A model generated the notes under the pieces. That model ran no database searches, was not told the DNA's origin, and saw nothing but the letters and a program-made list of their open reading frames with translations. This document shows positions 9,399 through 62,164 of a stretch of 64,000 bases of DNA, in pieces. Made by a program: the position numbers and the translations under genes. Source of the DNA: an uncultured Methylococcaceae bacterium (lineage in GTDB: Bacteria; Pseudomonadota; Gammaproteobacteria; Methylococcales; Methylococcaceae); NCBI GenBank assembly GCA_903857165.1, contig CAIODU010000219.1, forward strand, positions 5,172 through 69,171, in the 5' to 3' direction. Within the stretch, counting starts at the first letter, position 1, and the number at the start of each line of letters is the position of its first letter.

Positions 9399-10451
9399 AT
9401 GAACAAGCGAAAATTCGAACGCGATCCAGACGATAAGATAATCTCCGGCGTATGCGGGGGACTGGCCCGCTACTTTGGCATCAGTTCCAGGCTCATCCGC
9501 TTTCTGTTCTTCATCTCGGTTTTCTTCAGTTTCAGCCTGACCTTCTGGGTTTATATCCTGTTTTGGCTGATCGCCCCGATGCGACGCTCCACCCGTGAAA
9601 AACTGTCCAGGGACATGCGCAAAAAGGCACGGAATCTGGATAAGTTGGTCGAGGATACCTGTGCGCGTTCCAAGCTTCCTGAACTGACTTCCCGATTGAA
9701 CAATATCCATGACATTATCGAATCCCTTCTGCCGGAACTGGAGAGCAGGTCCATCAGCCGGGAACCGGGATTGCTTCCCGTGTTTGAAGCCGCTTTCGTG
9801 CATTTGCCTGAACTGTTGGAAAACTTTCTCCGGTTGCCCGCAAACTACGCGCAGGGACAAGCCATTACCGGTATCAAGACAGCGCAAGACCATTTATCCG
9901 ACGAATTGCAGCAGTTGGAAAGGACGCTGGTCAATGTCACCAAGGGGCGGTATGGACAGAAATTCGCCAAATCCGCCGACGCGCTGGATGGTTTTAGCAC
10001 CCGTTACGAAGACGATCCGACCACACCGTTCAGGTTGAAACTGGAATCATTGCAAAGCCGGGTGGCGGGCCGCTTGGATGCGGAGGCGACGGCCAAGATC
10101 GAAAACATCAAAAACTCCCTGTTGGCCGCATTGGGCCGGCTGATGCAAACCGTCGATGGTGCGGACGTCAACCTCTACAATGTCCGGCAGATCGCCTTGG
10201 AGTATCTGCCGAACACGGTGGACAAATACCTGGCCCTACCGCAGGGCCTGGCCGATAACGAGCCATTGTCGCAAGGTAAAACCGCACAGGCCGCGTTTCA
10301 CGAACAATTGAACGTCTTGGATGGTGCGTTGACCCGCATGGTCACCAGCCTTTATCAGGAAGATGCCCAAGGATTGTTTGTGCATGGGCATTTTCTGCGC
10401 GACAAATTCATCGACGGGCAACTTGAATGGATGGGCGATGGGAAGCCATAG
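9399..10451 (+). CDS. PspC domain-containing membrane protein
   Basis: N-terminus DDKIISGVCGGLARYFGISSRLIRFLFFISVFF is a PspC domain followed by a TM helix. The C-terminal region is long and helical. Confidence 0.75.
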   Translation: MNKRKFERDPDDKIISGVCGGLARYFGISSRLIRFLFFISVFFSFSLTFWVYILFWLIAPMRRSTREKLSRDMRKKARNLDKLVEDTCARSKLPELTSRLNNIHDIIESLLPELESRSISREPGLLPVFEAAFVHLPELLENFLRLPANYAQGQAITGIKTAQDHLSDELQQLERTLVNVTKGRYGQKFAKSADALDGFSTRYEDDPTTPFRLKLESLQSRVAGRLDAEATAKIENIKNSLLAALGRLMQTVDGADVNLYNVRQIALEYLPNTVDKYLALPQGLADNEPLSQGKTAQAAFHEQLNVLDGALTRMVTSLYQEDAQGLFVHGHFLRDKFIDGQLEWMGDGKP

Positions 10452-10565
10452 CCCGGATGGGGCTTGGGTAATCCGGGGATATCTGATCCGCAAACTTCCC
10501 ACATTCCGCCGCGCCCCCCGCGGGCCACATCCAATCCCCATCCGATCCGGCGATTTGAGAGAGTG

Positions 10566-11519
10566 ATGGCGTTATCGTCCTTGGAAATCTGCGCCGGTGC
10601 CGGTGGGCAGGCATTGGGCTTGGAGTTGGCTGGTTTTGACCACGTTCGCCTAGTTGAGATTGAACCGCCCGCCTGTGCGACACTGCGCCTGAACCGTCCA
10701 GACTGGAATGTGGTCGAAGGCGACCTGCGGCTGTTTGATGGCACTCCTTTCAGAGGCATAGACTTACTGGCCGGTGGCGTCCCCTGCCCGCCGTTTTCCA
10801 AAGCCGGCAAGCAATTGGGTTCCGACGATGACCGGGACTTGTTCCCCGAGGCGATTCGCCTGGTCGATGAATGCCGGCCCCAAGCCGTGATGCTGGAGAA
10901 TGTGCGCGGCTTGCTGGATGCCGTGTTTGGCGATTACCGGAACAAAGTCGAAAAACAACTCATCAAGCTCGGCTACAAACCGGGTTGGAAACTGCTTAAT
11001 GCTTGCGACTACGGGGTTTCCCAACTTCGCCCGCGCGTGGTGTTTGTCGGCATTCGCAAAGACTTGGTCGACAAGTTTGAATGGCCGGAACCGCTCAAAA
11101 TACCGCCTCCCACCGTGGGCGAGCTGCTCTACGACCTGATGAAAACCAATGGTTGGCGGGGTGCCGAACGTTGGCGCGAACAAGCCAATATGATCGCCCC
11201 CACGCTGGTCGGCGGGTCGAAGAAACATGGCGGGCCAGATCTTGGGCCCACCCGCTCACGGCAAGCTTGGGCAGCCTTGGGTGTTGACGGCCTCGGCGTA
11301 TGGGATGATGCCCCGCCGCGTGATTTCGTCGGCATGCCGCGGCTGACGACCCGCATGACGGCCCGTATCCAGGGTTTCCCTGATGATTGGGAATTCTTTG
11401 GCAAAAAAACCCCGGTTTACCGCCAAATCGGCAATGCCTTCCCCCCACCCGTCGCCGCTGCCGTGGCGAGGAACATATTCGCCGCCCTGAGTGTCAGGCG
11501 CAGCTTCAAGGTGGCCTAA
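10566..11519 (+). CDS. DNA (cytosine-5)-methyltransferase, type II R-M
   Basis: C5-MTase motifs in order: I LEICAGAGGQALG, IV GVPCPPFS, VI ENVRGL, VIII QLRPRVVFVG, X GNAFPPPV. The track ORF starts at 10464, but the conserved N-terminus begins at the ATG at 10566. Confidence 0.9.
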   Translation: MALSSLEICAGAGGQALGLELAGFDHVRLVEIEPPACATLRLNRPDWNVVEGDLRLFDGTPFRGIDLLAGGVPCPPFSKAGKQLGSDDDRDLFPEAIRLVDECRPQAVMLENVRGLLDAVFGDYRNKVEKQLIKLGYKPGWKLLNACDYGVSQLRPRVVFVGIRKDLVDKFEWPEPLKIPPPTVGELLYDLMKTNGWRGAERWREQANMIAPTLVGGSKKHGGPDLGPTRSRQAWAALGVDGLGVWDDAPPRDFVGMPRLTTRMTARIQGFPDDWEFFGKKTPVYRQIGNAFPPPVAAAVARNIFAALSVRRSFKVA

Positions 11520-12382
11520 TGACGGCATCGACCGAATTTGCCTTGGCCCGCAAGGCATTTCACAAGCAATTGTTGGAAACCGTCCTGACACTCAGCGCCG
11601 CCGGGGTCGCCAGCAACGCCGACAAAGACAACCGGGCCAGTGTCGCGATAGCGGCAGGCATTGCCCGCCTGCTGGAAGCGGAAACCCAAGCCGAGCGCCT
11701 GGCCGGGCAAACCTCGGGCAACCGCTTTGAGGATGCCTGTGCGGGCTTCGTCCGTGGCACATTCAGCAAGCTCACCCACTTGCGACCCGGTTTGTGGGAT
11801 GTCCATCAGGTTACCGGGCGCAACCGCCTGGAAATTGCCAAATACGAGCAATTCGCCCATCTTGTCGCCTTGGACGAGGCCGCAAGGGCAAACCCGGCCT
11901 TGGCCGCAGCGCTAGGCAGCGATTACACCATCACGCCTGATGTGGTCGTCGTCCGCCACAGGGAACCGGACGATGCCATCAACGCAAATGCGCCGCTGGT
12001 GGATGGCAGCATTGCCCGTCATGCCAGCTTGCGCGAAGCCAGCGGCGGCGGGCCGCTGCTCCATGCCAGCATTTCCTGCAAATGGACTATCCGCAGTGAC
12101 CGCGCCCAGAACGCCCGATCCGAAGCCTTGAACTTGATCCGCAACCGCAAGGGGCATCTCCCTCATATCATGGTGGTGACAGCGGAACCGACACCCTCCC
12201 GCCTCGCCTCGATTGCCTTGGGCACCGGCGACATAGATTGCGTCTACCATTTTGCCCTGTACGAGTTGCAAGAATCCCTGCAACACTTGAACATGGACGA
12301 TGCCGCCGACATGCTGGCAGTGATGGTGGACGGCAAAAGGCTCAAAGACATATCCGATTTGCCGCTGGATTTGGCGGTTTGA
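11519..12382 (+). CDS. type II restriction endonuclease, NgoMIV family
   Basis: ATG at 11519 overlaps the MTase stop (TAATG). Long stretches match my memory of R.NgoMIV: PGQTSGN.FE, GRNRLEIAKYEQFAHL, AAALGSDYTITPDVVV, LLHASISCKWTIRSDRAQNARSEALNLIRNRKGHLPHIMVVTAEPTPSRLASIALGTGDIDCVYHFALYEL, KRLKDISDLPLDLAV. Confidence 0.8.
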   Translation: MTASTEFALARKAFHKQLLETVLTLSAAGVASNADKDNRASVAIAAGIARLLEAETQAERLAGQTSGNRFEDACAGFVRGTFSKLTHLRPGLWDVHQVTGRNRLEIAKYEQFAHLVALDEAARANPALAAALGSDYTITPDVVVVRHREPDDAINANAPLVDGSIARHASLREASGGGPLLHASISCKWTIRSDRAQNARSEALNLIRNRKGHLPHIMVVTAEPTPSRLASIALGTGDIDCVYHFALYELQESLQHLNMDDAADMLAVMVDGKRLKDISDLPLDLAV

Positions 12383-12489
12383 CAAGGCTAAAAGAACTTT
12401 GACTAAGGAATCATCCCCTTCAACAGGCTTGCCTTGTGCGGCTAGGATTGCAACAATCCCACTATTCATAACGATCAAAGGCCCAACTC

Positions 12490-13940: not shown

Positions 13941-13977
13941 CAAGACCGACTCGGTTTTAAAAACCGAGTCGGTCTTG
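13941..13977 (+). terminator. perfect 17-bp stem hairpin downstream of lpd
   Basis: CAAGACCGACTCGGTTT-TAA-AAACCGAGTCGGTCTTG begins 15 nt after the lpd stop. Only a weak T-tract follows. Confidence 0.45.
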
Positions 13978-13998
13978 ATATCCTCCAAGGAAACCGTC

Positions 13999-14217
13999 AT
14001 GTTAAGAGAAATCATCCGTCCAACACAAAATCGTATCGTTTTGGAATTGCCGGACGAATATGTCAATCAAGACATCGAAGTTTTGGCGTTTCCTGTGTAT
14101 GAAGGGAAATCTATCACCCACCCGGCTGAGAACCAATACCCGTTGCGTGGGAAACCCTTGAGTTACCAACAACCTTTTGATGGCGTGGCCGTGGAAGATT
14201 GGGAGGTATTGCCTTGA
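13999..14217 (+). CDS. putative antitoxin partnered with the PIN toxin
   Basis: 72 aa from the ATG at 13999, with AAGGA 7 nt upstream. The track start at 13975 lies inside the lpd hairpin. The stop overlaps the toxin start (TTGA). No antitoxin family recognised. Confidence 0.55.
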   Translation: MLREIIRPTQNRIVLELPDEYVNQDIEVLAFPVYEGKSITHPAENQYPLRGKPLSYQQPFDGVAVEDWEVLP

Positions 14218-14609
14218 TAGTTCTGGACACCCACACATGGATTTGGTGGGTGCATGGCGATTCGCAATTACCTCAAACAGATGCCGATTTCATCAAGCGG
14301 CATGAATCGGATGCCATTGGCGTGAGTGCCATCTCCTGTTGGGAACTGGCAAAACTATATCAATATCAACGGATAAACCTACCCTGTGAGCTTTCCGAAT
14401 GGCTTGACTTGGCACTGAACTACCCCGGCCTTAGGCTGTTGCCTTTGACTCCTGCGATTGCGATGGAATCTACCCTCCTACCCGGTATCTTTCACCGTGA
14501 CCCCGCCGATCAAATCATTGTAGCAACGGCAAGAATCCATGACTGCCCCTTGGTGACACAGGATGCCAAGATACTGGCTTATCCTCATGTAAAGAAACCA
14601 GCTTCGTAG
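14214..14609 (+). CDS. vapC: PIN-domain ribonuclease toxin (VapC family)
   Basis: IVLDTHTWIWW..., SAISCWELA, DPADQIIVATARIHDCPLVTQD give the PIN acidic residues. The likely start is TTG at 14214, preceded by GGGAGG. Confidence 0.8.
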   Translation: MIVLDTHTWIWWVHGDSQLPQTDADFIKRHESDAIGVSAISCWELAKLYQYQRINLPCELSEWLDLALNYPGLRLLPLTPAIAMESTLLPGIFHRDPADQIIVATARIHDCPLVTQDAKILAYPHVKKPAS

Positions 14610-14818: not shown

Positions 14819-15040
14819 CTTCAGATGGCTTATGAGAGGCAAGCCATAACCTAAGATTGGCTGCATAAGGCTATGGAGAGGATTCATCAAGCAAACGAAA
14901 TCCTTCACAAGCCCAATGAGAAGCTTAATAAGTTAAATGAAAGGGTTTTCAAGCCAAACGATAGGGATCATCATTCATGTGAGAACCTTCACAAGGCCAT
15001 AGAAAGTGTTTATATGGCAAACGAGAGGCTTCACAAGCAG
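14819..15040 (+). repeat. degenerate tandem array of about 10.5 units of 21 nt
   Basis: Example units: CTTCAGATGGCTTATGAGAGG, CTGCATAAGGCTATGGAGAGG, CTTCACAAGCCCAATGAGAAG, CTTCACAAGGCCATAGAAAGT, GTTTATATGGCAAACGAGAGG. One frame reads as heptads (LHKxNEx) but is broken by a TAA at 14852-14854. Confidence 0.75.
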
Positions 15041-15107
15041 TAGGTCGGCATCCCCATGCCGACAACAGACTTGTTTATTCTTTGGCGGCAAAGGGTTGCC
15101 GCCCTAC
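15040..15107. repeat. REP doublet (REPIN) of the GTAGG-headed family
   Basis: GTAGGTCGGCATCCCCATGCCGAC, a 20-nt spacer, then GGCGGCAAAGGGTTGCCGCCCTAC. These are two inverted hairpins with GTAGG/CCTAC outer ends. Confidence 0.8.
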
Positions 15108-15139
15108 TACTAAACCTTTTGTGCGCCGTAACCCGATAG

Positions 15140-18124
15140 CTAAACAACAGGGGCAGAACACAACACCACACGGAAGCCGAGGTTGCAGTTGCGGTCGCCG
15201 GGTCGATACCCGAAGCGGACGGCACAACGGGCGCCGTCTTGAAGGCTGCGCCAAGAACCGCCCCGCACGACCCGGTCCGCTTCGCCTTCCATGCCCTTCC
15301 GTTCCGGCTGGTCATATTCATTCAAACACCATTCCCAGACATTGCCCGCCATATCCAGTGCGCCAAAGGGTGATCGGCCTTGCGGATATAGGCCGACCGC
15401 CGAAGTTTGCTTCAAATAGTGCGGCCCGGCATAGTCATAAGTTTCGTTGATGTTGGCATAGCCTAATTGGAACTGCCCCCAAGGAAACTCAAGCTTCTCA
15501 GTCCCTCGCGCCGCCTTCTCCCATTCCTGTTCGGTGGGCAGTCGGACCTCGCAACCTAAACCATATGAAAGCCAGCGACAAAAAGCCACCGCATCAAACC
15601 AACGCACTGTCTCACGCGGATGATTCGAGTAATCCCATGTTGGTTCTTCGGGCTGATCAAACCTTCTCGCCAATCCCTCCCACCACTGAGGGTTGCTGTA
15701 GCCTTCAGCATCGTCGATGAAGGCTTGAAACTGGCAATGGGTCACCGGATAACGGGCGATATGGAAGCCAGGTAGCGTCAGCATTTCCCCGTCTTGAAAG
15801 ATGAACGGCCCGGCGGGCACTTCCACCCAGTCAATATCGGGAATAGGTCGGCGAAGCTTGGAATCGTAACGCAAGGCGACACCGGGGCGATTGTCTAGTG
15901 GTACACCATCCAAAGTCAGCATAGCCAAAGCGCGACCGAAAGCGGCTCTGGCTTCGGGTTCCGGGTCACGCTCAAGATCGGTCAGTATCCAATCCTGCCG
16001 TAATTGCCCCAATGTTTCATTGGGTGTCAGTGCGCCACTATTGAGTATGCATTGCACGGTAACTTCGGGCTGTGCTTGTTTCAACCAGTCGATGACCGGC
16101 GTACAATTGGCGGCATAAAACCCGGCCAGTAGCACGGCGGATTCTTCCCAGCTTGTGCGTTCCCAAGCATTCGGCCAGCGTCTTTCCGCTGGTAATTCGC
16201 CGCGTTCTAAACGTGAACGCAGAACTCTTGCGGTGAAATACTCTTGCAGTAATTGGTGGGTGAAGCGCACCTCGCGCTCGCCCACGTCCAGCAGGCTGGC
16301 GGCGGAGGCACGATATAACAGGCTGTCTTCCACCCATTCGGCAGCGTCCGCCCGTGACAACACGGTGAAGGCTTCGGTGTTGTCGTACTTGGACTTTCGC
16401 CGGGATTGCAAGGCCCACGCCAGATTTTCCAATGCCGCCAACAGAGCCTCGCCTTCTGTTGTGGTGCGCCATTCCTCTGTGTCTTCTGCTAGATGTTCGC
16501 GTAGCAGCAGCACCTGTACGAAACCGTCGAACAACGAGGCCCGGTTGGCGGGCAATTCGCCTGAACCGATATACACTTGGGTCAACATGTACAGCAAATA
16601 GGGATTGCCGGCCAACCACATCAGGCTGCGCGGGTCATGCACCGCCTTGCGCCAAATCTGGTCTTGTCTACCGCTGGTATTATCATAAATATTCGGATCT
16701 GATTTTGGCACGTCCTGTGCCGACCAGAACAACGCCCAATCTGCCCCGGCTTTCTGCCAAACCCGCCACACCTCACGCACTGGGTCGCCGCCGGCCAGCC
16801 GCCAGAACAAATTCTCGCCGAGTTCCCTGCCCCTTTCCTGAATATCATGTTGAGCGTAGGGCGGCAATCCTTTGCCGCCATCAACTTCCGAGTTACATTC
16901 GTCGGCATTGGGATGCCGACCTACCAAACTGTTGTTTTGCGGCCCATTCACCCGGATTCCGCCAGAGGCTCCATCCGGGCTACTTTGCTCTATCGTCGCA
17001 CTCAGGTAAGCAGTGACAAAATCGAGGATACGCGGCGGGTCCAAGGGTCGGATGGTGACGGTGTCCAGCCCTAAATCCAATGCGCCGGTGTAGTCCAATT
17101 CGCGGCAACTCACCAATGCCGGCAAGTCTTTATTATTTTCCAAGAACGATTTGGCCAAGTCCGCTTTCGCCGCTCGATCAGTGAAGGGGACTTCGTTCAG
17201 CCCGTCCAGCAGCAACACGGTTCGCCGGGTTTTAAGCAGCGGCTCCAGATAATCGCCCAGTTCTCCTAATTCGCGCTCGACAAAGGCCTGGAGAGGCTCA
17301 TCAGACGTCCATTTGCCAAGCCGGATCAGCAGCGGCAACGGGGCCGACGGGTCGGCTAGCGCATGGTCTGCGGCGTCCCGCGCCAGCTTCCATAACGTAG
17401 TGGTTTTCCCCGCCCCCGGCTCGCCCAATAGCGCGGCACGGCGCACCTCGCCGAAGACCACCATAATATCGTCATAACTACGCGGCTGTTTTGGCGGCTC
17501 GTCGGCGTGGGCGGTGATCCGGCACAAATGGCGGAATTCCGGGCGCATGACCACAGAAGGCAAAGGGGCCGACGCTTGGCTTTTGGCACTCACCTTGGCG
17601 ACCCCGGCCATGGGTGTGTACAACTCGGTATGCACCAGTTCGCCCAACTGCAAACGGCGAAGATAGGCCAGTTCGGCTTGCCTTTGCTTGCTTTCGGTGG
17701 GTGTCGGGGTTATTACGGGTTTGGGCAACGAAGCCAACAAGCGGGTCAAGCCAGTGTCATAGTCAGGTTCAATCGGGATGGCTTGGCGGTCGGCCATGTA
17801 CCAAGGCAGTAGGCAGCCCTTGGTCAGCAGGGGAATGATGGGTTTGCCGAGTTGTTTCGCATGAAGGAATTCCAGCCGTACCCATTCGCTGCGGTTGGCG
17901 GCTTCCGTCACCAAGGTGACAACGGCATAAGCCCGTTCCAAGCCCTCGGCGATGGCTTTAATCCAAACCTCTCCGCCGGGGATGTCAGTGGTATCCAACC
18001 AACACGGATGGCCGGCCTGTTCCAAATCGTCCAGCAGCCGGTCCGCTATGGCGCGGTCGGTGCGGGAATAACTCAGAAATACCACCGGGCCAGTGGTGTT
18101 GGTTGGTCGGGCAGCAATTTTCAT
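15140..18124 (-). CDS. STAND NTPase: N-terminal TIR domain, NACHT P-loop NTPase, helical region, C-terminal FGE/SUMF1-fold (formylglycine-generating-enzyme-like) domain
   Basis: 994 aa. TIR: VVFLSYSRTDRAIADRLLDDLEQAGHPCWLD...NRSEWVRLEF, with the putative catalytic Glu at aa 85. Walker A is GEPGAGKT (aa 234-241) and Walker B is TVLLLDGLNE (aa 302-311). The FGE fold spans aa ~763-992 (RYPVTHCQFQAF, RLPTEQEWEKAARG, GALDMAGNVWEW, RVVRGGSW, LGFRVV). Confidence 0.9.
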   Translation of the reverse strand: MKIAARPTNTTGPVVFLSYSRTDRAIADRLLDDLEQAGHPCWLDTTDIPGGEVWIKAIAEGLERAYAVVTLVTEAANRSEWVRLEFLHAKQLGKPIIPLLTKGCLLPWYMADRQAIPIEPDYDTGLTRLLASLPKPVITPTPTESKQRQAELAYLRRLQLGELVHTELYTPMAGVAKVSAKSQASAPLPSVVMRPEFRHLCRITAHADEPPKQPRSYDDIMVVFGEVRRAALLGEPGAGKTTTLWKLARDAADHALADPSAPLPLLIRLGKWTSDEPLQAFVERELGELGDYLEPLLKTRRTVLLLDGLNEVPFTDRAAKADLAKSFLENNKDLPALVSCRELDYTGALDLGLDTVTIRPLDPPRILDFVTAYLSATIEQSSPDGASGGIRVNGPQNNSLVGRHPNADECNSEVDGGKGLPPYAQHDIQERGRELGENLFWRLAGGDPVREVWRVWQKAGADWALFWSAQDVPKSDPNIYDNTSGRQDQIWRKAVHDPRSLMWLAGNPYLLYMLTQVYIGSGELPANRASLFDGFVQVLLLREHLAEDTEEWRTTTEGEALLAALENLAWALQSRRKSKYDNTEAFTVLSRADAAEWVEDSLLYRASAASLLDVGEREVRFTHQLLQEYFTARVLRSRLERGELPAERRWPNAWERTSWEESAVLLAGFYAANCTPVIDWLKQAQPEVTVQCILNSGALTPNETLGQLRQDWILTDLERDPEPEARAAFGRALAMLTLDGVPLDNRPGVALRYDSKLRRPIPDIDWVEVPAGPFIFQDGEMLTLPGFHIARYPVTHCQFQAFIDDAEGYSNPQWWEGLARRFDQPEEPTWDYSNHPRETVRWFDAVAFCRWLSYGLGCEVRLPTEQEWEKAARGTEKLEFPWGQFQLGYANINETYDYAGPHYLKQTSAVGLYPQGRSPFGALDMAGNVWEWCLNEYDQPERKGMEGEADRVVRGGSWRSLQDGARCAVRFGYRPGDRNCNLGFRVVLCSAPVV
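16856..16924. repeat. REP doublet (REPIN) inserted in frame inside the TIR-NACHT coding sequence
   Basis: GTAGGGCGGCAATCCTTTGCCGCC, 21 nt, then GTCGGCATTGGGATGCCGACCTAC. The element is 69 nt, which equals codons 401-423 (VGRHPNADECNSEVDGGKGLPPY). It has the same architecture as the intergenic copy at 15040-15107. Confidence 0.85.
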
Positions 18125-18137
18125 GATGAGGCAAAAC

Positions 18138-18507
18138 GTTAAACTTTAGTCCGTCATTCCTGCCGGGAAGCAGGACAAATCGGCAGGATAGCCGATTTGC
18201 ACGGCTCCACCGCCCGAAGGGTGAGGGACAAGGATGTCCCGAATGCATCCTGTCAAAAGGGCGTGAAACTAGAGTTAGCCACTCACCTTTAATCACCGAT
18301 GTTACGCACTCGTCGGCAAAGGGTTGCCGACCTACGGCGGTTGTGGCCATTCCAGCCACCTAGACCGTAGGGCGGCAACCCTTTGCCGCCAACGGTTTAG
18401 GTTTGGCTGCGCGTAACATCAGTTAACCATGTATTCATGCATGGACAAGTTACCATCCATGGCACTGGATTCCGGCAGTCCATGCCGGAATGACGGCTTA
18501 ACTTTAC
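18138..18507. repeat. ~370-bp repeat-dense block bounded by ~21-bp imperfect inverted repeats
   Basis: GTTAAACTTTAGTCCGTCATTCC (18138-18160) pairs with GGAATGACGGCTTAACTTTAC (18487-18507). The interior contains several hairpins and the element at 18298-18420. Confidence 0.5.
18298..18420. mobile_element. MITE-like 123-bp element with 10-bp terminal inverted repeats
   Basis: GATGTTACGC...GCGTAACATC, followed by AGTTAA. The interior carries two GTAGG-family REPs (18312-18335 and 18367-18390). Confidence 0.5.
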
Positions 18508-20036: not shown

Positions 20037-21167
20037 TCAGGAATCACCTTCGTCGTCCGGTCCGAGGGTGAATTCATCCAGCCAGTTCTCCAGCGTTTCC
20101 GTGTCGAGTCGGTGGGTGATGGATTGACCTTCAGGCTTTTCGATGGTGATGACGTTTTCCGGCGTGTCGATGAATTCCTCCACAAGCAAATCAGAGTGAG
20201 TTGATACGATTAACTGAGTCCGTTGCGAGGCATCGCGCAACAATTCCGCCAGGGCAGGCATCATTTCGGGGTGTAGGCCTAGTTCCGGTTCCTCAATGCA
20301 AATCAAAGGGGGCGGAACGGGATGGCAAAGTATTGCCAACAGGCAAAGGAAACGCAGTGTGCCATCCGACATGATTGCGGTTGGAATCAGGAAGCCCGCT
20401 TCCTTGATGGATATTTGCGCAACACCCTCGACAAAATTGACATTGATATCCTCCGTATTGGGAAGAAGAGTACGGAGATGCCCCAAAATTTTCTTTTTGG
20501 TTTCGGGCGCGTTGCAGAGCAAAGACAGGATTGCGCCGAGGTTTTCAAAGTTTTCGGAGAGGAAATCTTCCGTCAAGCCTTGATTGTCGGGGATGCGCAG
20601 CGGGCAAAGTGCCCCAAATGTCCAATCCCGGTAAATGCGAATTTTGCCGAATGCTTCCCCTAACCAGGAGATTTCCGGATATGCCTCCGTATTTTTGCGC
20701 TGTGCCAATATGGATAGCTCGGTGTTGATGTCTTCCCGTTTTAACTGCCGCCGGCCACTTTTCACATTGATGACCGGCGCGCCTTTTTGATAGGCAAAGT
20801 AGAAATAGGATTTTCCGTGGCCCACATCGGGATGCTCGTTTTCTATGCGTTCGTCGGTCAGTTGGAAATTTTGGTTGCTGGCAGTGAATTCCAGCCAATA
20901 GCGCAGGTTTCTGGAACCGACGGGGCAATTAATCACCGCTTCCAACCGGACGATAGGGTGATTTTTATGTCCTTGCCATAGCCAGCCCAGTGGCAGGGGG
21001 GCGGGTTGGCTCTTAGTTGCCGACTGCAACAGTCTGACGCACTCGATAAGATTGGACTTTCCACTACCGTTGGGACCGACAAGGATATTGAGTGGTGCCA
21101 GTTCGATAGGCGGTTGATCCTCGCCAAAAGAGAGGATGTTTTTAGGATTGATACTGGTAATAAGCAT
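20037..21167 (-). CDS. ABC/SMC-like AAA ATPase (AAA_21/AAA_15-type) with no adjacent partner gene
   Basis: Walker A VGPNGSGKSN, signature-like MSDGTLRFLCLLAIL, Walker B LICIEEPELGLHP, and STHS. Confidence 0.8.
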   Translation of the reverse strand: MLITSINPKNILSFGEDQPPIELAPLNILVGPNGSGKSNLIECVRLLQSATKSQPAPLPLGWLWQGHKNHPIVRLEAVINCPVGSRNLRYWLEFTASNQNFQLTDERIENEHPDVGHGKSYFYFAYQKGAPVINVKSGRRQLKREDINTELSILAQRKNTEAYPEISWLGEAFGKIRIYRDWTFGALCPLRIPDNQGLTEDFLSENFENLGAILSLLCNAPETKKKILGHLRTLLPNTEDINVNFVEGVAQISIKEAGFLIPTAIMSDGTLRFLCLLAILCHPVPPPLICIEEPELGLHPEMMPALAELLRDASQRTQLIVSTHSDLLVEEFIDTPENVITIEKPEGQSITHRLDTETLENWLDEFTLGPDDEGDS

Positions 21168-40342: not shown

Positions 40343-40432
40343 TGAGTCGACTATGACCTAAAATTTATCAGGGAACGGAGATTTAAAGCGGAAACAGGTG
40401 GCAAGGTCAAGTTTTTGGATTGCGCGGGCCGG

Positions 40433-40482
40433 CAGGGCGGCAACCCTTTGCCGCCATCCGTTGGCTTGGGTTTGCCAACCTA
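40433..40482. repeat. GTAGG-family REP doublet (degenerate head)
   Basis: AGGGCGGCAACCCTTTGCCGCC, 5 nt, then GTTGGCTTGGGTTTGCCAACCTAC. Confidence 0.65.
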
Positions 40483-40616
40483 CACGCCACGGCATTATTC
40501 TGGGATTATATACCCAACACCGCTATTTTCGGCATTTGCGGTGTTCCAATTCTACAAATTGCCATCTCCATGGCGTAAAATAATGGCGTTCGTTAATTCA
40601 GCCACCCTGAACCGCC

Positions 40617-49790: not shown

Positions 49791-49843
49791 GTAGGGAGGC
49801 AACCCTTTGCCGCCACCGCGTCGGCATGGGGAGGCCAGCCTAC
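49791..49843. repeat. GTAGG-family REP doublet abutting lpxD
   Basis: GTAGGGAGGCAACCCTTTGCCGCC, 5 nt, then GTCGGCATGGGGAGGCCAGCCTAC. The CTA of the terminal CCTAC is the complement of the lpxD TAG stop codon (49840-49842). Confidence 0.7.
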
Positions 49844-50904
49844 TTAGTCCCGGTCAATTCCGCAACCTTTTTCTCCAGTTTTTTCAGCCGCGACCACATT
49901 TCCGCGAGCTTGGGCATGATCGCGATGTTTTTCAGGTATTGTTGCAGAGGCTGGGTCGGACCCCCTGCATACATGCCGGGTTCTTTGATGCTGCGGTTGA
50001 TGCCCGCCCGGTGCAGTAAAACCGAGTCGCTGGCGACGGTGACATGGTCGAGTACGCCAGTCTGGCCCGAGGCGATCACCCGCTTCCCAAACTTACTGGA
50101 ACCGGAAATGCCGGTGTGGGCGCAGAGGATGCAATCCTCGCCGATATCGACATTATGGCCGATGTGGCACAACGCATCGACGATGACACCGGAACGGATG
50201 ATGGTGGCACCGTAAGTGGCGCGGTCAATGGTGGTGTTGGCCCCGATGACGACCCGATCCTCGATGATTACCTTTCCGGTATGCGGTATGCGATAATTGC
50301 GGCGTTTTTCGTCTTGGGCAAAACCGAATCCTTCCGACCCAATGACGCAACCGGCCTTGAGCATGACGTGGGCACCGATTTCACAGCCTTGGCTGACCAC
50401 GCAGCCGGGATGCACGACAGTTCCTTGGCCGATGCGGGCATTGTTTTCGACCACGGCATTGGCCATCAACACGACCCCATCCCCCAATTCAACATTTGCC
50501 CCAACGACCACGCCGGGGCCGATGACCGCGTCATCAGGAATTTGAACGCTGGGGTGGATCACAGACGAAGGGTGAATGCGTGGCCATTCCGTGTGGTAAT
50601 AGTCGCGGTCGTCATAAGCCTGCTTGACCAAGGCAGTAGCCAACCTGATGTTCTCTGCCAACAGGATGGCGAGGCCCGCCTCTCCTTGCAGTTCAGCGGC
50701 AATGGCTTTGTTGGTAATGACGGCGGCGGGTTTGCGTTCTAGCACCAAGGGCAAAAATTTGGCGTTATCGACAAAAACCAAATCGCCCCCGGCACAGTCA
50801 TCAATGGGGGCGAAGCGGCTGATGGCATTATCCGGGCCTCGGTGGTCAAAAATGAGCCCCTGCCCCTTGAAGCGTTGTAAAATTTCCGATGCTTTCAAAT
50901 TCAT
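49840..50904 (-). CDS. lpxD: UDP-3-O-(3-hydroxyacyl)glucosamine N-acyltransferase
   Basis: N-terminal uridine-binding region followed by a long run of hexapeptide repeats (IGPGVVVGANVELGDGVVLMANAVV...). Confidence 0.92.
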   Translation of the reverse strand: MNLKASEILQRFKGQGLIFDHRGPDNAISRFAPIDDCAGGDLVFVDNAKFLPLVLERKPAAVITNKAIAAELQGEAGLAILLAENIRLATALVKQAYDDRDYYHTEWPRIHPSSVIHPSVQIPDDAVIGPGVVVGANVELGDGVVLMANAVVENNARIGQGTVVHPGCVVSQGCEIGAHVMLKAGCVIGSEGFGFAQDEKRRNYRIPHTGKVIIEDRVVIGANTTIDRATYGATIIRSGVIVDALCHIGHNVDIGEDCILCAHTGISGSSKFGKRVIASGQTGVLDHVTVASDSVLLHRAGINRSIKEPGMYAGGPTQPLQQYLKNIAIMPKLAEMWSRLKKLEKKVAELTGTK

Positions 50905-53301: not shown

Positions 53302-56300
53302 CTATAATGCCCTGGCAAGCCGGAAACCCTGGTTGTAGAAGGCCCCATCGGTCGTGATCCTGTTACGGTAGGCCGAACGGAGGTACTGCGGGACGTAGTA
53401 CCACGAACCGCCCCGAACCACCCGGCGACTGTCCCCGCCGTCCTCCCAGGCGGAACCGTCGCCGGGGGCACCCTGGTAATCATCATGCCAGCGGTCTTGC
53501 ACCCATTCCCAAGCATTGCCCGCCATATCAGATAGCCCAAACCCATTGGGCCGTTTTTCCCCGACCGGATGGGTCGTGCCTTGGGAATTATTAGAAAACC
53601 AAGCATAGTTATCCGCGTCCGCGACCGATTCCCCCCAGAAAAACTGGCTGGTGCTGCCTGCCCGCACGGCGTATTCCCATTCCGCTTCTGTTGGCAAGCG
53701 ACCGCCCGCCCAGTGTGCAAACCGGCAGGCGGCGTTCCAGTCGATGCCGACGACCGGTTGACGGGCTTGATTAAAGCGCCGGTCGGCCCAGTATTTTGGT
53801 TGTTTTTCTTTTGGGTGGGCTTGCAGGAAAAGCGCATACTCTTCATTGGTGACCGGGTAGCGGCCTAAGTGGAAAGGGCGGATTTCAACCGCGTGCGCAG
53901 GGCGTTCGCTGTCATTCCCCTCGCCTTCGGCTGAACCCATCATGAAGCGCCCGCCGGGGATCAGGATCAGTTCCACTCCGCCGTTGGAGATGCGCGGGAC
54001 AGCGACATCTTTCCAACTTTGTTCAAAGCTGAGTAAATTTTCGAAAAAACGGTGGTTTATCGTTTCGGCCAACGGCTCCATCGTATCCGGTGCCAGCCGA
54101 TCCAAAACTCGTATTGCCGCCGCTTGATTCGCAAACAGAACAGTATAATTGCCGGGTTCTTGCCGGAGAAATTCCACAAACGGGATTGGCGAAAATTCAG
54201 CGGCTTCTTCTAGAATTAAATCCAGAAACGCGCTGTCGTCGGCAAAGCGGGCTTGCTTGAGTGCTTCGGTCATGAACGGCGCGAACAAAGACGGGTTGCC
54301 TTGTGCCAGCAGCAACAAGATGACCTCGTTCCACCAACTTTCGCCATAATGCGCGGCCAGTTCGGACAATGTATCGCGCTTGCCGCCATCCAGTGCTTCG
54401 GCTAAGGCTAGGCGGCGCAACTCGCAAGCGGCAAGGTATTCCTGAAAGCCTAAATGCATGAAGCCATAAACCCCATGGCTCCAACCGGTCAACAAACCGC
54501 TTTCGTCGCGGAGGGTCTGCAAGAATTGCCGGGCATCGCCGTTTCGCCATTGCGTGGCTTTTAGGGCCGGTTCCAGCACCGGGGCCAGTTCTTCGGCAGT
54601 GGCACGGGTGCGTTTGTCCTCGCCATGCAGCCATAGCGCCACAGGTTGCAAGGCGCGTCGGCCAGTTTGCGCGGGGATACTGACCAACAGGCTTCTGCCT
54701 TGCCCGATGGATTTATGTTGTCGCCAGAGTTCCAGCAATACGGCTATGCACTCGTCGTAAAGCTCGTGCCGCCCTTTGGGTAAAATGCCGCCCCGGTCAC
54801 GATGCACCAGGCAAAGATTCGCCAACAGCAAGGGGTTGCGGGTCATCTCAGCCATGCGAGTAGAGCGGGAGTCCGGTTCCCGCAGCCGTTCGACCAACTC
54901 TGCGGCTTTTTCGGTCGCCTTGATTGCGCCGGAGGGTCCGGGTGTGAGTCCAGTCTCCACCGCCTTGTACCAGTTGCGGATGAAGCTTTCCGATTGTTCT
55001 TGGGTCATGGGCCGCAGATGCAGTTCCAAAAAGCCCGCATCCATGAGGCTGTCTTCGTCATATCCGGCAAACCGGCAAGTCACCACGGCAGTGCAAGCGG
55101 GCAACGCTTGGACCGCGCTTTTGATCCATTCGGCGACTTTGGCGCGTTGCTTGGCGTCGCTGACTTCGTCCAGACCGTCGAACAATAGCAGCAAGCGGCC
55201 CCGTTCCAACAACCGCTTGCCAAAGCCTTGCGGCATATTCAGGTGAGGGCTGTCCAAGGTCTTTTCGATGAAAGCGTCCAAGCCGTGGTCCAAATCCTCC
55301 AACTCGCGCAGTGGCAGGAACACCGGCAGCAGATCGTCGGGTAGGCCCAGCCAGTCCGGGCCTTGCCGCAAACAGGCCAGCAACAGCCGCTTCAAATGGG
55401 TGGTCTTGCCCGAACCGGGGTCGCCCAGAATGACGAGGTTATGCCGCTTGCGGGCATGAGCCTCGCGGAAGGCGTCGATGAGGGCGATCTCGGCGGAGCC
55501 ATGACTGCCTAGCTTGGCCTCGGCGTCGGCGGCATCGGCAAACAGGCAAGCGCCCGTCCCGCGCAAATCGACACTGGCTTGCAGCGGGACATACAATTCT
55601 TCCAAGTCGATGGGTACTCGCAGCCTAGTTTTGAAACCGGCCAGCGGGATTTCCTTGTGTTGATTCTCCATGACTTCGCAATAGCGATTTAATTCCGGTT
55701 CCAGGCCAGCGGGTTCGGGCTTGGTTGCGGGTGCAGTGTTGCCGCCAAGCTGTTGTTTACGCCAATCATGCAAGGCTTGGTAGACCATTACATTGAGTTT
55801 GCTTTCCTCAAAGAGTCCGGGCATCTGATCTTCACGGAACTTAGCCTTGAAGTCATCAAGCTTGTCCCGTTTGGCCCCTCGCCCCTTGCCTTGATCAAAA
55901 TCTTTGTCGGGGTCCACCCGAACCGATGCAGCAATCTCAAACATCAACCTAGGCCGCCCGGCCAACTTGGCGGCGTCATATTCCAGTTCGGTGATGGAGA
56001 ATTCCAGGCCATCGGGTATCCAGCCGTAGCGATGGGCGATGATGCCCAGAAATACATCACATTCCCGCGCTTGCCGCTCGCATTCTTCTACGGTGGTGTT
56101 GGCGCTGGCGGCGAAGCGCTCCATGCCGACCGGCAGCATTTTGGCACGGATAATGGCATCTTCGACTAGCTTGCGCCGCTCCTCGTTGTCGAGAAAGGTG
56201 CTGGAAATAAAGACGGTAACGGGCAGGTTGGAAGGCGGGCTAACACCTAGCGGGGAATCTTTCGTGTTACGATGCAATGGGTTCATGACGATGGGTTGGA

Positions 56301-56367
56301 GTGCCTTAGTGCCAAAAATGAAATCGCCCAAGCAGGTGCTGGAGGGTGAATTGTAATTTAAAAACAT
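53302..56367 (-). CDS. STAND NTPase: N-terminal DUF4062-like (TIR-like fold) domain, NACHT NTPase, helical region, C-terminal FGE/SUMF1-fold domain
   Basis: DUF4062-like: VFISSTFLDNEERRKLVEDAIIRAKMLPVGMERF...CDVFLGIIAHRYGWIP. Walker A is ILGDPGSGKTT (DNA ~55399-55428) and Walker B is LLLLFDGLDEV. FGE fold: LIPGGRFMMGS, RYPVTNEEYALF, RLPTEAEWEYAVRAG, GLSDMAGNAWEW, RVVRGGSW, QGFRLA. The track ORF extends to 56619 through REP hairpins. The likely start is the ATG at 56367 or at 56286. Confidence 0.88.
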   Translation of the reverse strand: MFLNYNSPSSTCLGDFIFGTKALQPIVMNPLHRNTKDSPLGVSPPSNLPVTVFISSTFLDNEERRKLVEDAIIRAKMLPVGMERFAASANTTVEECERQARECDVFLGIIAHRYGWIPDGLEFSITELEYDAAKLAGRPRLMFEIAASVRVDPDKDFDQGKGRGAKRDKLDDFKAKFREDQMPGLFEESKLNVMVYQALHDWRKQQLGGNTAPATKPEPAGLEPELNRYCEVMENQHKEIPLAGFKTRLRVPIDLEELYVPLQASVDLRGTGACLFADAADAEAKLGSHGSAEIALIDAFREAHARKRHNLVILGDPGSGKTTHLKRLLLACLRQGPDWLGLPDDLLPVFLPLRELEDLDHGLDAFIEKTLDSPHLNMPQGFGKRLLERGRLLLLFDGLDEVSDAKQRAKVAEWIKSAVQALPACTAVVTCRFAGYDEDSLMDAGFLELHLRPMTQEQSESFIRNWYKAVETGLTPGPSGAIKATEKAAELVERLREPDSRSTRMAEMTRNPLLLANLCLVHRDRGGILPKGRHELYDECIAVLLELWRQHKSIGQGRSLLVSIPAQTGRRALQPVALWLHGEDKRTRATAEELAPVLEPALKATQWRNGDARQFLQTLRDESGLLTGWSHGVYGFMHLGFQEYLAACELRRLALAEALDGGKRDTLSELAAHYGESWWNEVILLLLAQGNPSLFAPFMTEALKQARFADDSAFLDLILEEAAEFSPIPFVEFLRQEPGNYTVLFANQAAAIRVLDRLAPDTMEPLAETINHRFFENLLSFEQSWKDVAVPRISNGGVELILIPGGRFMMGSAEGEGNDSERPAHAVEIRPFHLGRYPVTNEEYALFLQAHPKEKQPKYWADRRFNQARQPVVGIDWNAACRFAHWAGGRLPTEAEWEYAVRAGSTSQFFWGESVADADNYAWFSNNSQGTTHPVGEKRPNGFGLSDMAGNAWEWVQDRWHDDYQGAPGDGSAWEDGGDSRRVVRGGSWYYVPQYLRSAYRNRITTDGAFYNQGFRLARAL

Positions 56368-61143: not shown

Positions 61144-61167
61144 GTAGGTCGGCAACCCATTGCCGAC
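61144..61167. repeat. GTAGG-family REP
   Basis: GTAGGTCGGCAACCCATTGCCGAC. A degenerate partner (GGTGGCAAAGGGCTACCGACC) lies ~45 nt upstream. Confidence 0.7.
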
Positions 61168-61207
61168 GTGTGCGTTTCGCCAAATGTTAATGGTTTGGTG
61201 CGAAAAA

Positions 61208-62164
61208 TCAGTTAATCAAAGCATTAACAGTAAATCGTATTGCACTGGGTAAGTCAATCTTAATCTGCAAACCAAGTTTATTTTTTGCTTTATCAATGGA
61301 GGGGACATATCTGTCAATTATTGCTTCAGTAATCATAGGTAGATTAGTTTTCACACCAAATTCTTGCGCAACTAAAACAGCCAAATCTCTGATCGATATA
61401 GCATCGTCTGATCCTAAGTTATAAATTGGGCAATCTGGTTTGGCATCCGAGGCAATTGTCAACAGCCATTCCGCTAAATCATCAGCATGCATATAGCTTC
61501 TAACTACCTGATGCTGTGCCTTGACTGTGATAGCCCTTCCACAAAGACCATCTTCAATGAAGTTGCCTATTGCAAAATGTTGATTTCGTGGTAGCCACGG
61601 ACCCACAAATGCGAAGCATCTGGCAATACTCACTGACAAGCCATGCCGTACCCCCAAATCAATGATTGCGCGTTCTGCCTCGCGTTTCGCAAAGGTATAG
61701 TCACGCTTATTTTCCGGTAAATTTTCAATGGCACCAAATGCATAAGATTCTGGTATTTTCAATAAATTATCAGGTTGCACACCGTAGACAGCACCGGAAC
61801 TAACATATAAGATACTGCTGTGAGCGTGAAATTTAGGGGCAAGCCGACAATAGTTATAAGTGGCAGCCTGTATATTTCTTCGCTCTTCAAGTGGCCGTGT
61901 CATATATTGAGCGGCATCAGTGGAAGCCGCTGCATGTATAATCAAGTCAGCGTCGGGTAAACTATCGACGATGCCAATGTCAGCAGATATGAGTTCAACT
62001 CTGGGTGATAGCAACTCAGATGCCTCCTGTCTTAGACATTCAGCATTACGCGACATGGCTATCACACGTTCCACTTCCCAGGCATCCAACCTCCCTCTTC
62101 GAAACGAATCCAAAATGGATTTGCCAAAGAATCCAGTGCCGCCTATGACTAAGAGAGTTTTCAA
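61208..62164 (-). CDS. NAD-dependent epimerase/dehydratase (extended SDR)
   Basis: MKTLLVIGGTGFFGKSI (GxxGxxG) and YTFAK (YxxxK). Confidence 0.85.
   Translation of the reverse strand: MKTLLVIGGTGFFGKSILDSFRRGRLDAWEVERVIAMSRNAECLRQEASELLSPRVELISADIGIVDSLPDADLIIHAAASTDAAQYMTRPLEERRNIQAATYNYCRLAPKFHAHSSILYVSSGAVYGVQPDNLLKIPESYAFGAIENLPENKRDYTFAKREAERAIIDLGVRHGLSVSIARCFAFVGPWLPRNQHFAIGNFIEDGLCGRAITVKAQHQVVRSYMHADDLAEWLLTIASDAKPDCPIYNLGSDDAISIRDLAVLVAQEFGVKTNLPMITEAIIDRYVPSIDKAKNKLGLQIKIDLPSAIRFTVNALIN

Follow-up and report, generated by a model that had tools for sequence, protein, structure and literature searches.

A doublet of GTAG-type repetitive extragenic palindromes (REPs) lies in frame inside a TIR-NACHT-FGE gene of an uncultured Methylococcaceae bacterium, at positions 16856-16924 of the 64-kb stretch of DNA analyzed here (the window). 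The gene encodes a signal transduction ATPase with numerous domains (STAND) that resembles NOD-like receptors (NLRs), and the doublet is probably a selfish element that has been tolerated in a permissive loop of the protein. In-frame dimers of GTAG REPs are already documented, and the window doublet is a further clean example of them, with no new mechanism. Two observations go slightly beyond the literature cited below: several palindromes are layered in one loop of the NACHT module across alleles, and the same REP family occurs in frame in phage structural genes.

Sequence and fold of the intragenic doublet

The element reads GTAGGGCGGCAATCCTTTGCCGCC / ATCAACTTCCGAGTTACATTC / GTCGGCATTGGGATGCCGACCTAC (left arm, spacer, right arm), a layout of 24 + 21 + 24 nt in which the arms are inverted and the GTAG heads point outward. 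Each arm consists of a GTAG head, an 8-bp perfect stem and a 4-nt loop. The two units, of subtypes T1 and T2, are 0 to 1 base apart from variants of their family; the T2 unit is identical to copies in two IMG/VR loci (L086 and L098), and the one mismatch of the T1 unit is located in its loop. Folded as DNA, the 69-mer formed both expected hairpins (-20.9 kcal/mol, z = -6.65). The same two hairpins, each of 8 bp and G+C rich, were obtained for the mRNA strand (-32.6 kcal/mol for 89 nt, z = -2.87). Both units have the features that define a GTAG-type REP, namely an unpaired GTAG head and a palindrome, in a unit of 20-40 nt with a stem of 5-13 bp and a short loop. No target-site duplication was found at the junctions AACAGTTTG / element / GCTCAACAT, which suits a REP-type over a MITE-type (miniature inverted-repeat transposable element) insertion but is not diagnostic.

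The REP family was dispersed over the 64 kb of genome surveyed. The motif GTAGGNNGGCN8GCCNNC had 11 matches in the window against 0.30 expected, with a maximum of 3 in 100 shuffles, and two unit consensus sequences matched 7 and 5 times, where 0.03 and 0.00 matches would be expected. Nine of the 11 units were intergenic. A preliminary description of this DNA, made from the sequence alone, had recognized the two-hairpin architecture of the doublet and its kinship with intergenic doublets; both were borne out, the same motif recurring at 15040-15107, 40432-40483 and 49791-49843. In total, the window holds four head-to-head dimers and one tail-to-tail dimer, and further copies of the family were present in the related loci L001, L048, L055 and L085 and in 15 loci of the IMG/VR database.

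Intact coding sequence of the host gene and a single usable frame

Pfam assigned TIR_2 to residues 15-130 of the host protein (1e-22), NACHT to residues 229-329 (4.4e-07, 30.3 bits against a cut-off of 26.7) and FGE-sulfatase to residues 782-987 (3.4e-45). This order of TIR, P-loop NACHT and C-terminal sensor domain is that of a NACHT-clade STAND with a TIR effector. By Foldseek, the central part resembled NOD2, NLRC4 and NLRP3, and the C-terminus resembled FGE/ToxD/EgtB-type domains. The insert occupies codons 401-423 of 994, with the TIR and NACHT domains upstream and the FGE-sulfatase domain downstream. This exact placement had been reported in the preliminary description together with an open frame, and it held: 571 codons stay open after the insert. 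The residues that are invariant in the family were all kept, including the Walker A motif GxxGxGK at 234-240, D307/E311 and R341.

Pairwise ratios of nonsynonymous to synonymous substitution rates (dN/dS) against four orthologs lay at 0.17-0.20 in the part before the insert, at 0.11-0.15 over residues 430-650 and at about 0.22 over residues 650-994. These ratios, together with the predicted structure, support past purifying selection on the host gene and an insert in a tolerant loop, as distinct from proof of present function.

The reading frame itself was informative. The 69-nt doublet is open in three of six frames; in the coding orientation only one of three is open, and that is the frame in use. 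The other four doublets of the window measure 68, 79, 52 and 53 nt, none of them a multiple of 3. Thus, the lengths of the doublets and the single open coding frame form the pattern expected from a survivorship filter. A 24-nt unit corresponds to eight codons and is stop-free in five of six frames, the closed frame being the one in which the TAG of GTAG is read as a codon.

In an AlphaFold2 model based on 56 homologs (mean pLDDT 85.3, pTM 0.81), residues 382-421 formed a coil, whose pLDDT fell below 50 at residues 385-416, between a helix at 363-381 (RILDFVTAYL...) and a helix at 422-444. From the model and the standard STAND layout, we infer that this loop belongs to the helical domain right after the nucleotide-binding fold. 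Since the 23 residues would lie in a disordered loop between helices, the domains are predicted to be undisturbed.

Orthologs and the case for insertion

Hundreds of full-length homologs of the host protein were found. The closest were from Methylococcaceae metagenome-assembled genomes, with 70-77% identity over the full length and 85% for two partial sequences. One locus, L001 (GCA_026399135.1), was syntenic, with a single-stranded DNA-binding protein (SSB) gene, a small open reading frame (ORF) and the TIR gene, at 85% amino acid identity. The 23 inserted residues were present in none of 13 aligned orthologs, nor in the loop of 96 homologs, where no other loop was of sufficient length for them. 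Their occurrence in orthologs from genomes without the REP family had been named beforehand as the finding that would speak against an insertion, and no such ortholog was found. Presence in the sister contig L085 (described below) and absence from L001 (dS 0.47) would place the insertion after the split from L001, unless L001 lost the doublet.

Loop length was measured in the 96 homologs from the PLDxxRIxxF motif to LFWRLAG. It was 29-30 amino acids in 64 of them, up to 46 in the proteobacterial clade, 57 in three and 81 in one; the window loop, with 86, was the longest measured. The preliminary description had placed the insert in a linker of about 120 amino acids, compared with about 50 in a paralog. 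The loop is indeed expanded, but most of the stretch from ...TAYL to NPYLLYML is conserved helical sequence in all orthologs. The expansion is confined to the one loop, and the comparison with the paralog was only partly apt. That paralog is a second STAND gene at 53302-56367 (DUF4062-NACHT-FGE-sulfatase), 35 kb away and with no REP inside.

A sister contig with the same insertion

Metagenome contigs of the JGI were scanned with the 21-nt spacer, which is unique to the locus, and a single contig was retrieved, Ga0194049_1000046 (L085). This contig is collinear with the window at 95-99% identity. All 69 nt recur in it without a difference, at the same site and continuous with the coding sequence (CDS) that lies downstream in the window, of which about 90 nt are also identical. 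The doublet is therefore not an artefact of a single assembly, a possibility that the preliminary description had raised. On the coding-upstream side, unrelated DNA begins 6-7 nt past the REP, and the contig ends 207 nt beyond the element. The unrelated DNA (L085 14476-14652) encodes the N-terminus of an IS66-family transposase, MQLSDHSLRQIDEAYLKRLGDEALRSLSSKLL (62.5% identity, E = 4e-4). Besides this insertion sequence (IS), the L085 gene copy contains a nonsense codon and an insertion of about 130 nt in the FGE domain and is a pseudogene. The intragenic REP may have attracted an inactivating IS in L085, a chimeric contig end being the other possibility.

The identity between the window and L085 was uneven: about 100% over 14900-15499, about 85% with indels over 15500-16770, and 99-100% over 16771-16930. 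Such a mosaic suggests either that diverged alleles have recombined or that the metagenome consensus is chimeric. In addition, a segment of about 2 kb (window 10448-12437) that holds two ORFs (10464..11519 and 11387..12382) is absent from L085 at 9755-9770. One breakpoint of this difference lies inside a REP unit of a second type, B (ATAGCCCGGATGGGGC...ATCCGGGG), with short microhomology at the junction.

Several palindromes are layered in the loop

The loop contained other palindromes in other alleles. A near-perfect palindrome of 44 nt, element C (AAATCCCCCCAACCCCCCTTTGCAAAGGGGGGCAGGGGGGATTT, encoding IPPTPLCKGGQGGF), was found in L001 and L048. In L004 and L005, element C is accompanied by the 81-nt in-frame element B (GTAGCCCGGATG...CATCCGGGCTAC), in which units of a second GTAG REP type are paired head to head. 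The L019 loop has no large insert, yet holds a hairpin with an 11-bp stem. In the window, a remnant of element B, its left unit and spacer, adjoins the doublet directly upstream, so that a single disordered loop contains one complete REP dimer and half of another, from two families. B-type units were also found elsewhere (window 10448, L085 9755 and L016). Among the fetched loci, element C occurred only inside the orthologous genes, and its 20-nt core was found on four unrelated IMG/VR contigs. A candidate remnant of the right half of palindrome C, on the downstream side of the insert (AAAGGGGCAGGG vs CAAAGGGGGGCAGGGGGG), was set aside as speculation, since the similarity is too short to claim.

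A second site, after the LRSRLE helix, also varied. An in-frame palindromic insert with 22-nt arms, 95% complementary and encoding ...WLGATKPVLSEVEGLALSVKASFDAPQ..., was present there in L004 (2392-2536), L085 and proteins P0001-P0004, and not in the window allele. Comparison of these alleles indicates that the loop is a recurrent, permissive insertion hot spot. Layering of this kind would follow from the targeting of pre-existing palindromes and REPs, because some REPs insert within palindromes (PMC3733652) and REPs are known targets of ISs (PMC1525189).

Organization and conservation of the REP family

The coordinates of the doublet, its host gene and the other REP elements of the window are given in Table 1.

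Table 1. Host gene and REP elements of the window (strand as assigned; a dot marks features given without a strand).
Feature	Position	Strand	Remarks
In-frame REP head-to-head heterodimer	16856..16924	-	69 nt = codons 401-423, VGRHPNADECNSEVDGGKGLPPY, of the TIR-NACHT-FGE gene
REP unit, subtype T1	16901..16924	-	GTAG + GTCGGCAT CCCA ATGCCGAC; encodes VGRHPNAD
Spacer, 21 nt	16880..16900	-	GAATGTAACTCGGAAGTTGAT; encodes ECNSEVD; unique to the locus; as probe, retrieved L085
REP unit, subtype T2	16856..16879	+	GTAG + GGCGGCAA TCCT TTGCCGCC; coding strand gives GGKGLPPY
Host gene, TIR_2-NACHT-FGE-sulfatase STAND NTPase, 994 amino acids	15140..18124	-	Intact ORF
Element B remnant, left unit + spacer, GTAGCCCGGATGGAGCCTCTGGCGGAATCCGGGTGAATGGGCCGCAAAAC	16934..16983	-	43/50 bases match left half of intact B in L004/L005; encodes about SSPDGASGGIRVNGPQN
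REP head-to-head heterodimer	15040..15107	.	32 nt 3' of the TIR-NACHT-FGE stop codon; site kept in L085, L048
REP tail-to-tail dimer	18312..18390	.	5' intergenic region; same place in L001; flanked by 13-nt inverted repeat, 18295-18307 / 18411-18423
REP head-to-head doublet, same family	40432..40483	.	Intergenic; one unit degenerate
REP head-to-head doublet	49791..49843	.	Intergenic; terminal GTAG = TAG stop of ORF 49840..50904(-)
Single REP unit, same family	61144..61167	+	Intergenic

In the head-to-head dimers of all loci, a T1 unit (GTAGGT...GAC) was always paired with a T2 unit (GTAGGG...GCC), across spacers of 5-21 nt. The spacers of 12 such dimers, whose lengths cluster at 16-21 nt, were unrelated between loci and were kept only at orthologous positions, as at window 15040, L085 12365 and L048 13105. 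At this orthologous 3' site, the REP units of the window and L048 were identical at 47 of 48 positions although dS of the gene is about 1, and the units of the family are thus conserved or homogenized. For the same reason, dating of the insertion by its near-consensus sequence was rejected.

The IMG/VR scan with the unit pattern returned 15 loci (L086-L100, from contigs 3300005979, 3300006000, 3300027495 and others) on contigs of Mu-like phages, where the density reached 11 units in 13 kb. In these loci, two orthologous tape-measure ORFs each contained a single 24-nt unit in frame close to the C-terminus (VGMGMPTY and VGKGLPTY). The same-site units of the two genes differed by a compensatory stem change, CAT/ATG vs CAA/TTG. 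A 48-nt tandem with a REP unit was translated between the Portal_Mu and Mu_F domains of a 1004-amino-acid portal_Mu-Mu_F-PBECR2 frame.

Further features were observed around the other REPs and the host gene. The REP at 49820-49843 overlaps by 4 nt the 3' end of its neighboring ORF, which encodes an LpxD-like hexapeptide transferase of 354 amino acids. The inverted repeat around the 18312-18390 dimer reads ACCGATGTTACGC / GCGTAACATCAGT. The sequence GGTTTGGCTGCGCGTAACATCAGTTAACCA that follows this dimer resembles GGTTTGGTGCGAAAAATCAGTTAATCA, which follows the single REP at 61144 (regions 18295-18423 and 61144-61215), and this likeness hints at a larger composite repeat that contains the REP. 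The neighborhood of the host gene includes a VapC-type PIN toxin with a small upstream ORF (13975-14609) and an AAA_21 (AbiEii/OLD-like) ATPase adjoining the SSB gene (20037-21167).

Comparison with known systems

GTAG REPs form a superfamily in which head-to-head and tail-to-tail dimers with spacers of 1-100 nt are found and heterodimers are common (Di Nocera, De Gregorio & Rocco 2013, BMC Genomics 14:522; PMC3733652). In that survey, the GTAG often provides the TAG stop of an adjacent ORF. A minority of the REPs, in several species, lie wholly inside real genes; more than half of these are dimers or groups encoding 20-30 amino acids, and they are argued to be probably neutral and to sit in flexible loops or linkers. 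The window elements share the GTAG head with a short G+C-rich hairpin, the dimer organization, a product of similar size (23 amino acids) and a stop codon supplied at 49840. They differ in belonging to another REP sequence family, in a group, the Methylococcaceae, that does not appear in the text of that paper. The survey emphasizes DNA-repair and replication genes, whereas the host here is a TIR-NACHT-FGE STAND, with palindromes layered across its orthologs.

Another precedent is the palindromic elements of Rickettsia (RPEs; Ogata et al. 2000, Science 290:347, as cited in PMC3184786 and PMC3733652), which PMC3184786 reviews along with further in-frame repeats. RPEs are, like the window doublet, selfish palindromic repeats in frame in coding genes, and their host genes stay functional. 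Unlike the 69-nt doublet, RPEs are about 105-146 nt long, belong to other families (RPE-4 and RPE-6 being of CGTC type) and reside in reduced genomes of obligate intracellular bacteria. Within proteins, RPEs are typically at surface-exposed positions.

The doublets also resemble the bacterial interspersed mosaic elements (BIMEs) of Escherichia coli and the REPINs of Pseudomonas, in that REPs are paired in inverted orientation, two subtypes alternate (Y and Z in BIMEs) and the GTAG head lies outside the stem. Density is likewise high, at 11 units in 64 kb here and up to 11 in 13 kb in related loci. REPINs are replicating doublets with conserved spacers and a cognate REP-associated tyrosine transposase (RAYT). 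The preliminary description had applied the REPIN label to the window doublet. This label is not established: the spacers vary between loci and no RAYT was found in the window, and the doublets seem closer to BIME-like heterodimers than to sequence-conserved REPINs. The same description had called REPs classically extragenic. BIMEs and REPINs are indeed described as extragenic, in contrast to the doublet, but the surprise was overstated, since in-frame GTAG and CGTC REPs, mostly dimers of 20-30 amino acids, are documented (PMC3733652, and for RPEs by way of the account in PMC3184786).

With its TIR effector, NACHT NTPase and C-terminal FGE-like sensor, the host protein has the layout of bNACHT/Avs-type STANDs, and STANDs with FGE-like sensors are defense associated (PMC13581612). 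PADLOC models matched the host protein only in its TIR domain (residues 6-151), and no named defense system was recognized; the defense role of the gene is therefore a predicted one.

Weighing the explanations

The sequence of events that we favor would begin with the insertion of a T1 + T2 pair, from a REP family abundant in this Methylococcaceae lineage, into a permissive loop. The insertion would have survived because its length is a multiple of three, because the frame used is the sole stop-free frame in that orientation, and because the 23 residues fall where the protein is predicted to be disordered, in the loop that separates the first and second helices following the nucleotide-binding fold. 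An older REP dimer, B, would have been half-retained beside the newer doublet, in a loop that was repeatedly hit. The insert is most likely selfish DNA filtered by selection for frame preservation, with no dedicated protein function, and its main consequence is probably raised local instability. Of the three outcomes proposed in the preliminary description (a tolerated scar, allelic diversification or an RNA hairpin), the first is the one favored.

Several points weigh against this explanation. No clean empty site with otherwise identical flanks was found, and no ortholog exceeded 85% amino acid identity in a set of 5.8 billion proteins or in GTDB species genomes. Because the L001 loop is differently composed and the closest loops are mosaics of other palindromes, the precise ends of the insertion and the succession of events had to be inferred. 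Target preference and the neutrality of the insert are also inferred. The pairwise dN/dS mostly mirrors time before the insertion. The sole other carrier of the insertion, L085, is a pseudogene, so the window gene could be an intact-looking allele in decay. Conservation or homogenization of the hairpins would allow them some role as DNA or as RNA. Finally, a six-frame search of the window with a HUH-motif regular expression detected no RAYT, and Pfam detected no Y1_Tnp domain (PF01797) in 10 REP-adjacent ORFs.

Regulation at the RNA level is an unlikely alternative, in which the hairpins would act in the mRNA, for example as a barrier to 3'-5' exonucleases, as an RNase III/E site or as a translational pause. 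They would thereby set the level of the full-length receptor or stabilize a 5' fragment with only the TIR and nucleotide-binding domains. The coding-strand region does form two 8-bp G+C-rich hairpins, at orthologous sites the units of the family are conserved far more than neutrality would predict, a compensatory stem change distinguishes the units of the two orthologous tape-measure genes, and most REPs are thought to work as RNA elements (PMC3733652). However, hairpins of 8 bp are routinely unwound by translating ribosomes, and orthologs manage without the element. A terminator scan found no U-tract or terminator-like site at the element, and no Rfam family matched anywhere in the window. 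Since the loops of other lineages hold unrelated palindromes, tolerance is favored over a specific RNA device. It is more doubtful still that the repeated capture of palindromes in the NACHT loop was itself selected for altering the length and sequence of the loop, for example by tuning autoinhibition or oligomerization or by evading phage inhibitors. Three or four different elements in the same loop across Methylococcaceae alleles, a second site that varies too, the apparently mosaic alleles of close relatives and the defense association of STANDs with FGE-like sensors (PMC13581612) would all fit such diversification. Against this, the sequence of the inserted peptides follows from DNA palindromes, and disorder is predicted for the loop, which would lie in the helical domain by the NTPase fold rather than in the C-terminal sensor. 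Moreover, the L085 copy with the insert is a pseudogene, and a defense role is itself predicted for a protein that PADLOC recognizes only by its TIR domain. Phage structural genes, too, contain in-frame units of this REP family, so the pattern is not specific to immunity. Neither RNA regulation nor adaptive diversification has positive evidence.

Least credible is the absence of any real insertion, the doublet being a chance resemblance, an assembly artefact or part of a dead gene with an ORF that stayed open fortuitously. Repeats can cause wrong joins in metagenome-type assemblies, and the L085 contig ends close to the element and holds a degraded gene copy. Chance is nevertheless excluded, as 0 of 100 shuffles reached the observed motif counts. 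An artefact is opposed by the unique spacer, by the continuity of both flanks with conserved coding sequence and by the independent contig that joins the same 69 nt to the same downstream CDS. The downstream frame of 571 open codons, the retention of every invariant family residue and a dN/dS of about 0.2 speak against a dead gene.

Implications

The doublet is a well-supported case of how short, selfish palindromes can enter proteins without breaking them, here an NLR-like STAND NTPase. Annotation pipelines should not flag such genes as disrupted, and alignments and structure models of these receptors include repeat-derived loop segments without family-wide meaning. Intragenic REPs may also bring local fragility, as in the sister population, where an IS66 element lies beside the REP and the gene copy is a pseudogene. 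We give little credence to the further idea that the loop is a selected landing pad, in which REP A, REP B and palindrome C create indel alleles of an NLR-like receptor, and/or that the hairpins gate a full-length, potentially toxic TIR effector through its mRNA. If it were true, bacterial innate immunity would have turned selfish REPs into a module for diversification or regulation. The loop with its multiple elements is a natural map of a permissive insertion site in the NACHT module, and it might be of use in designing tagged or engineered bacterial NLRs.

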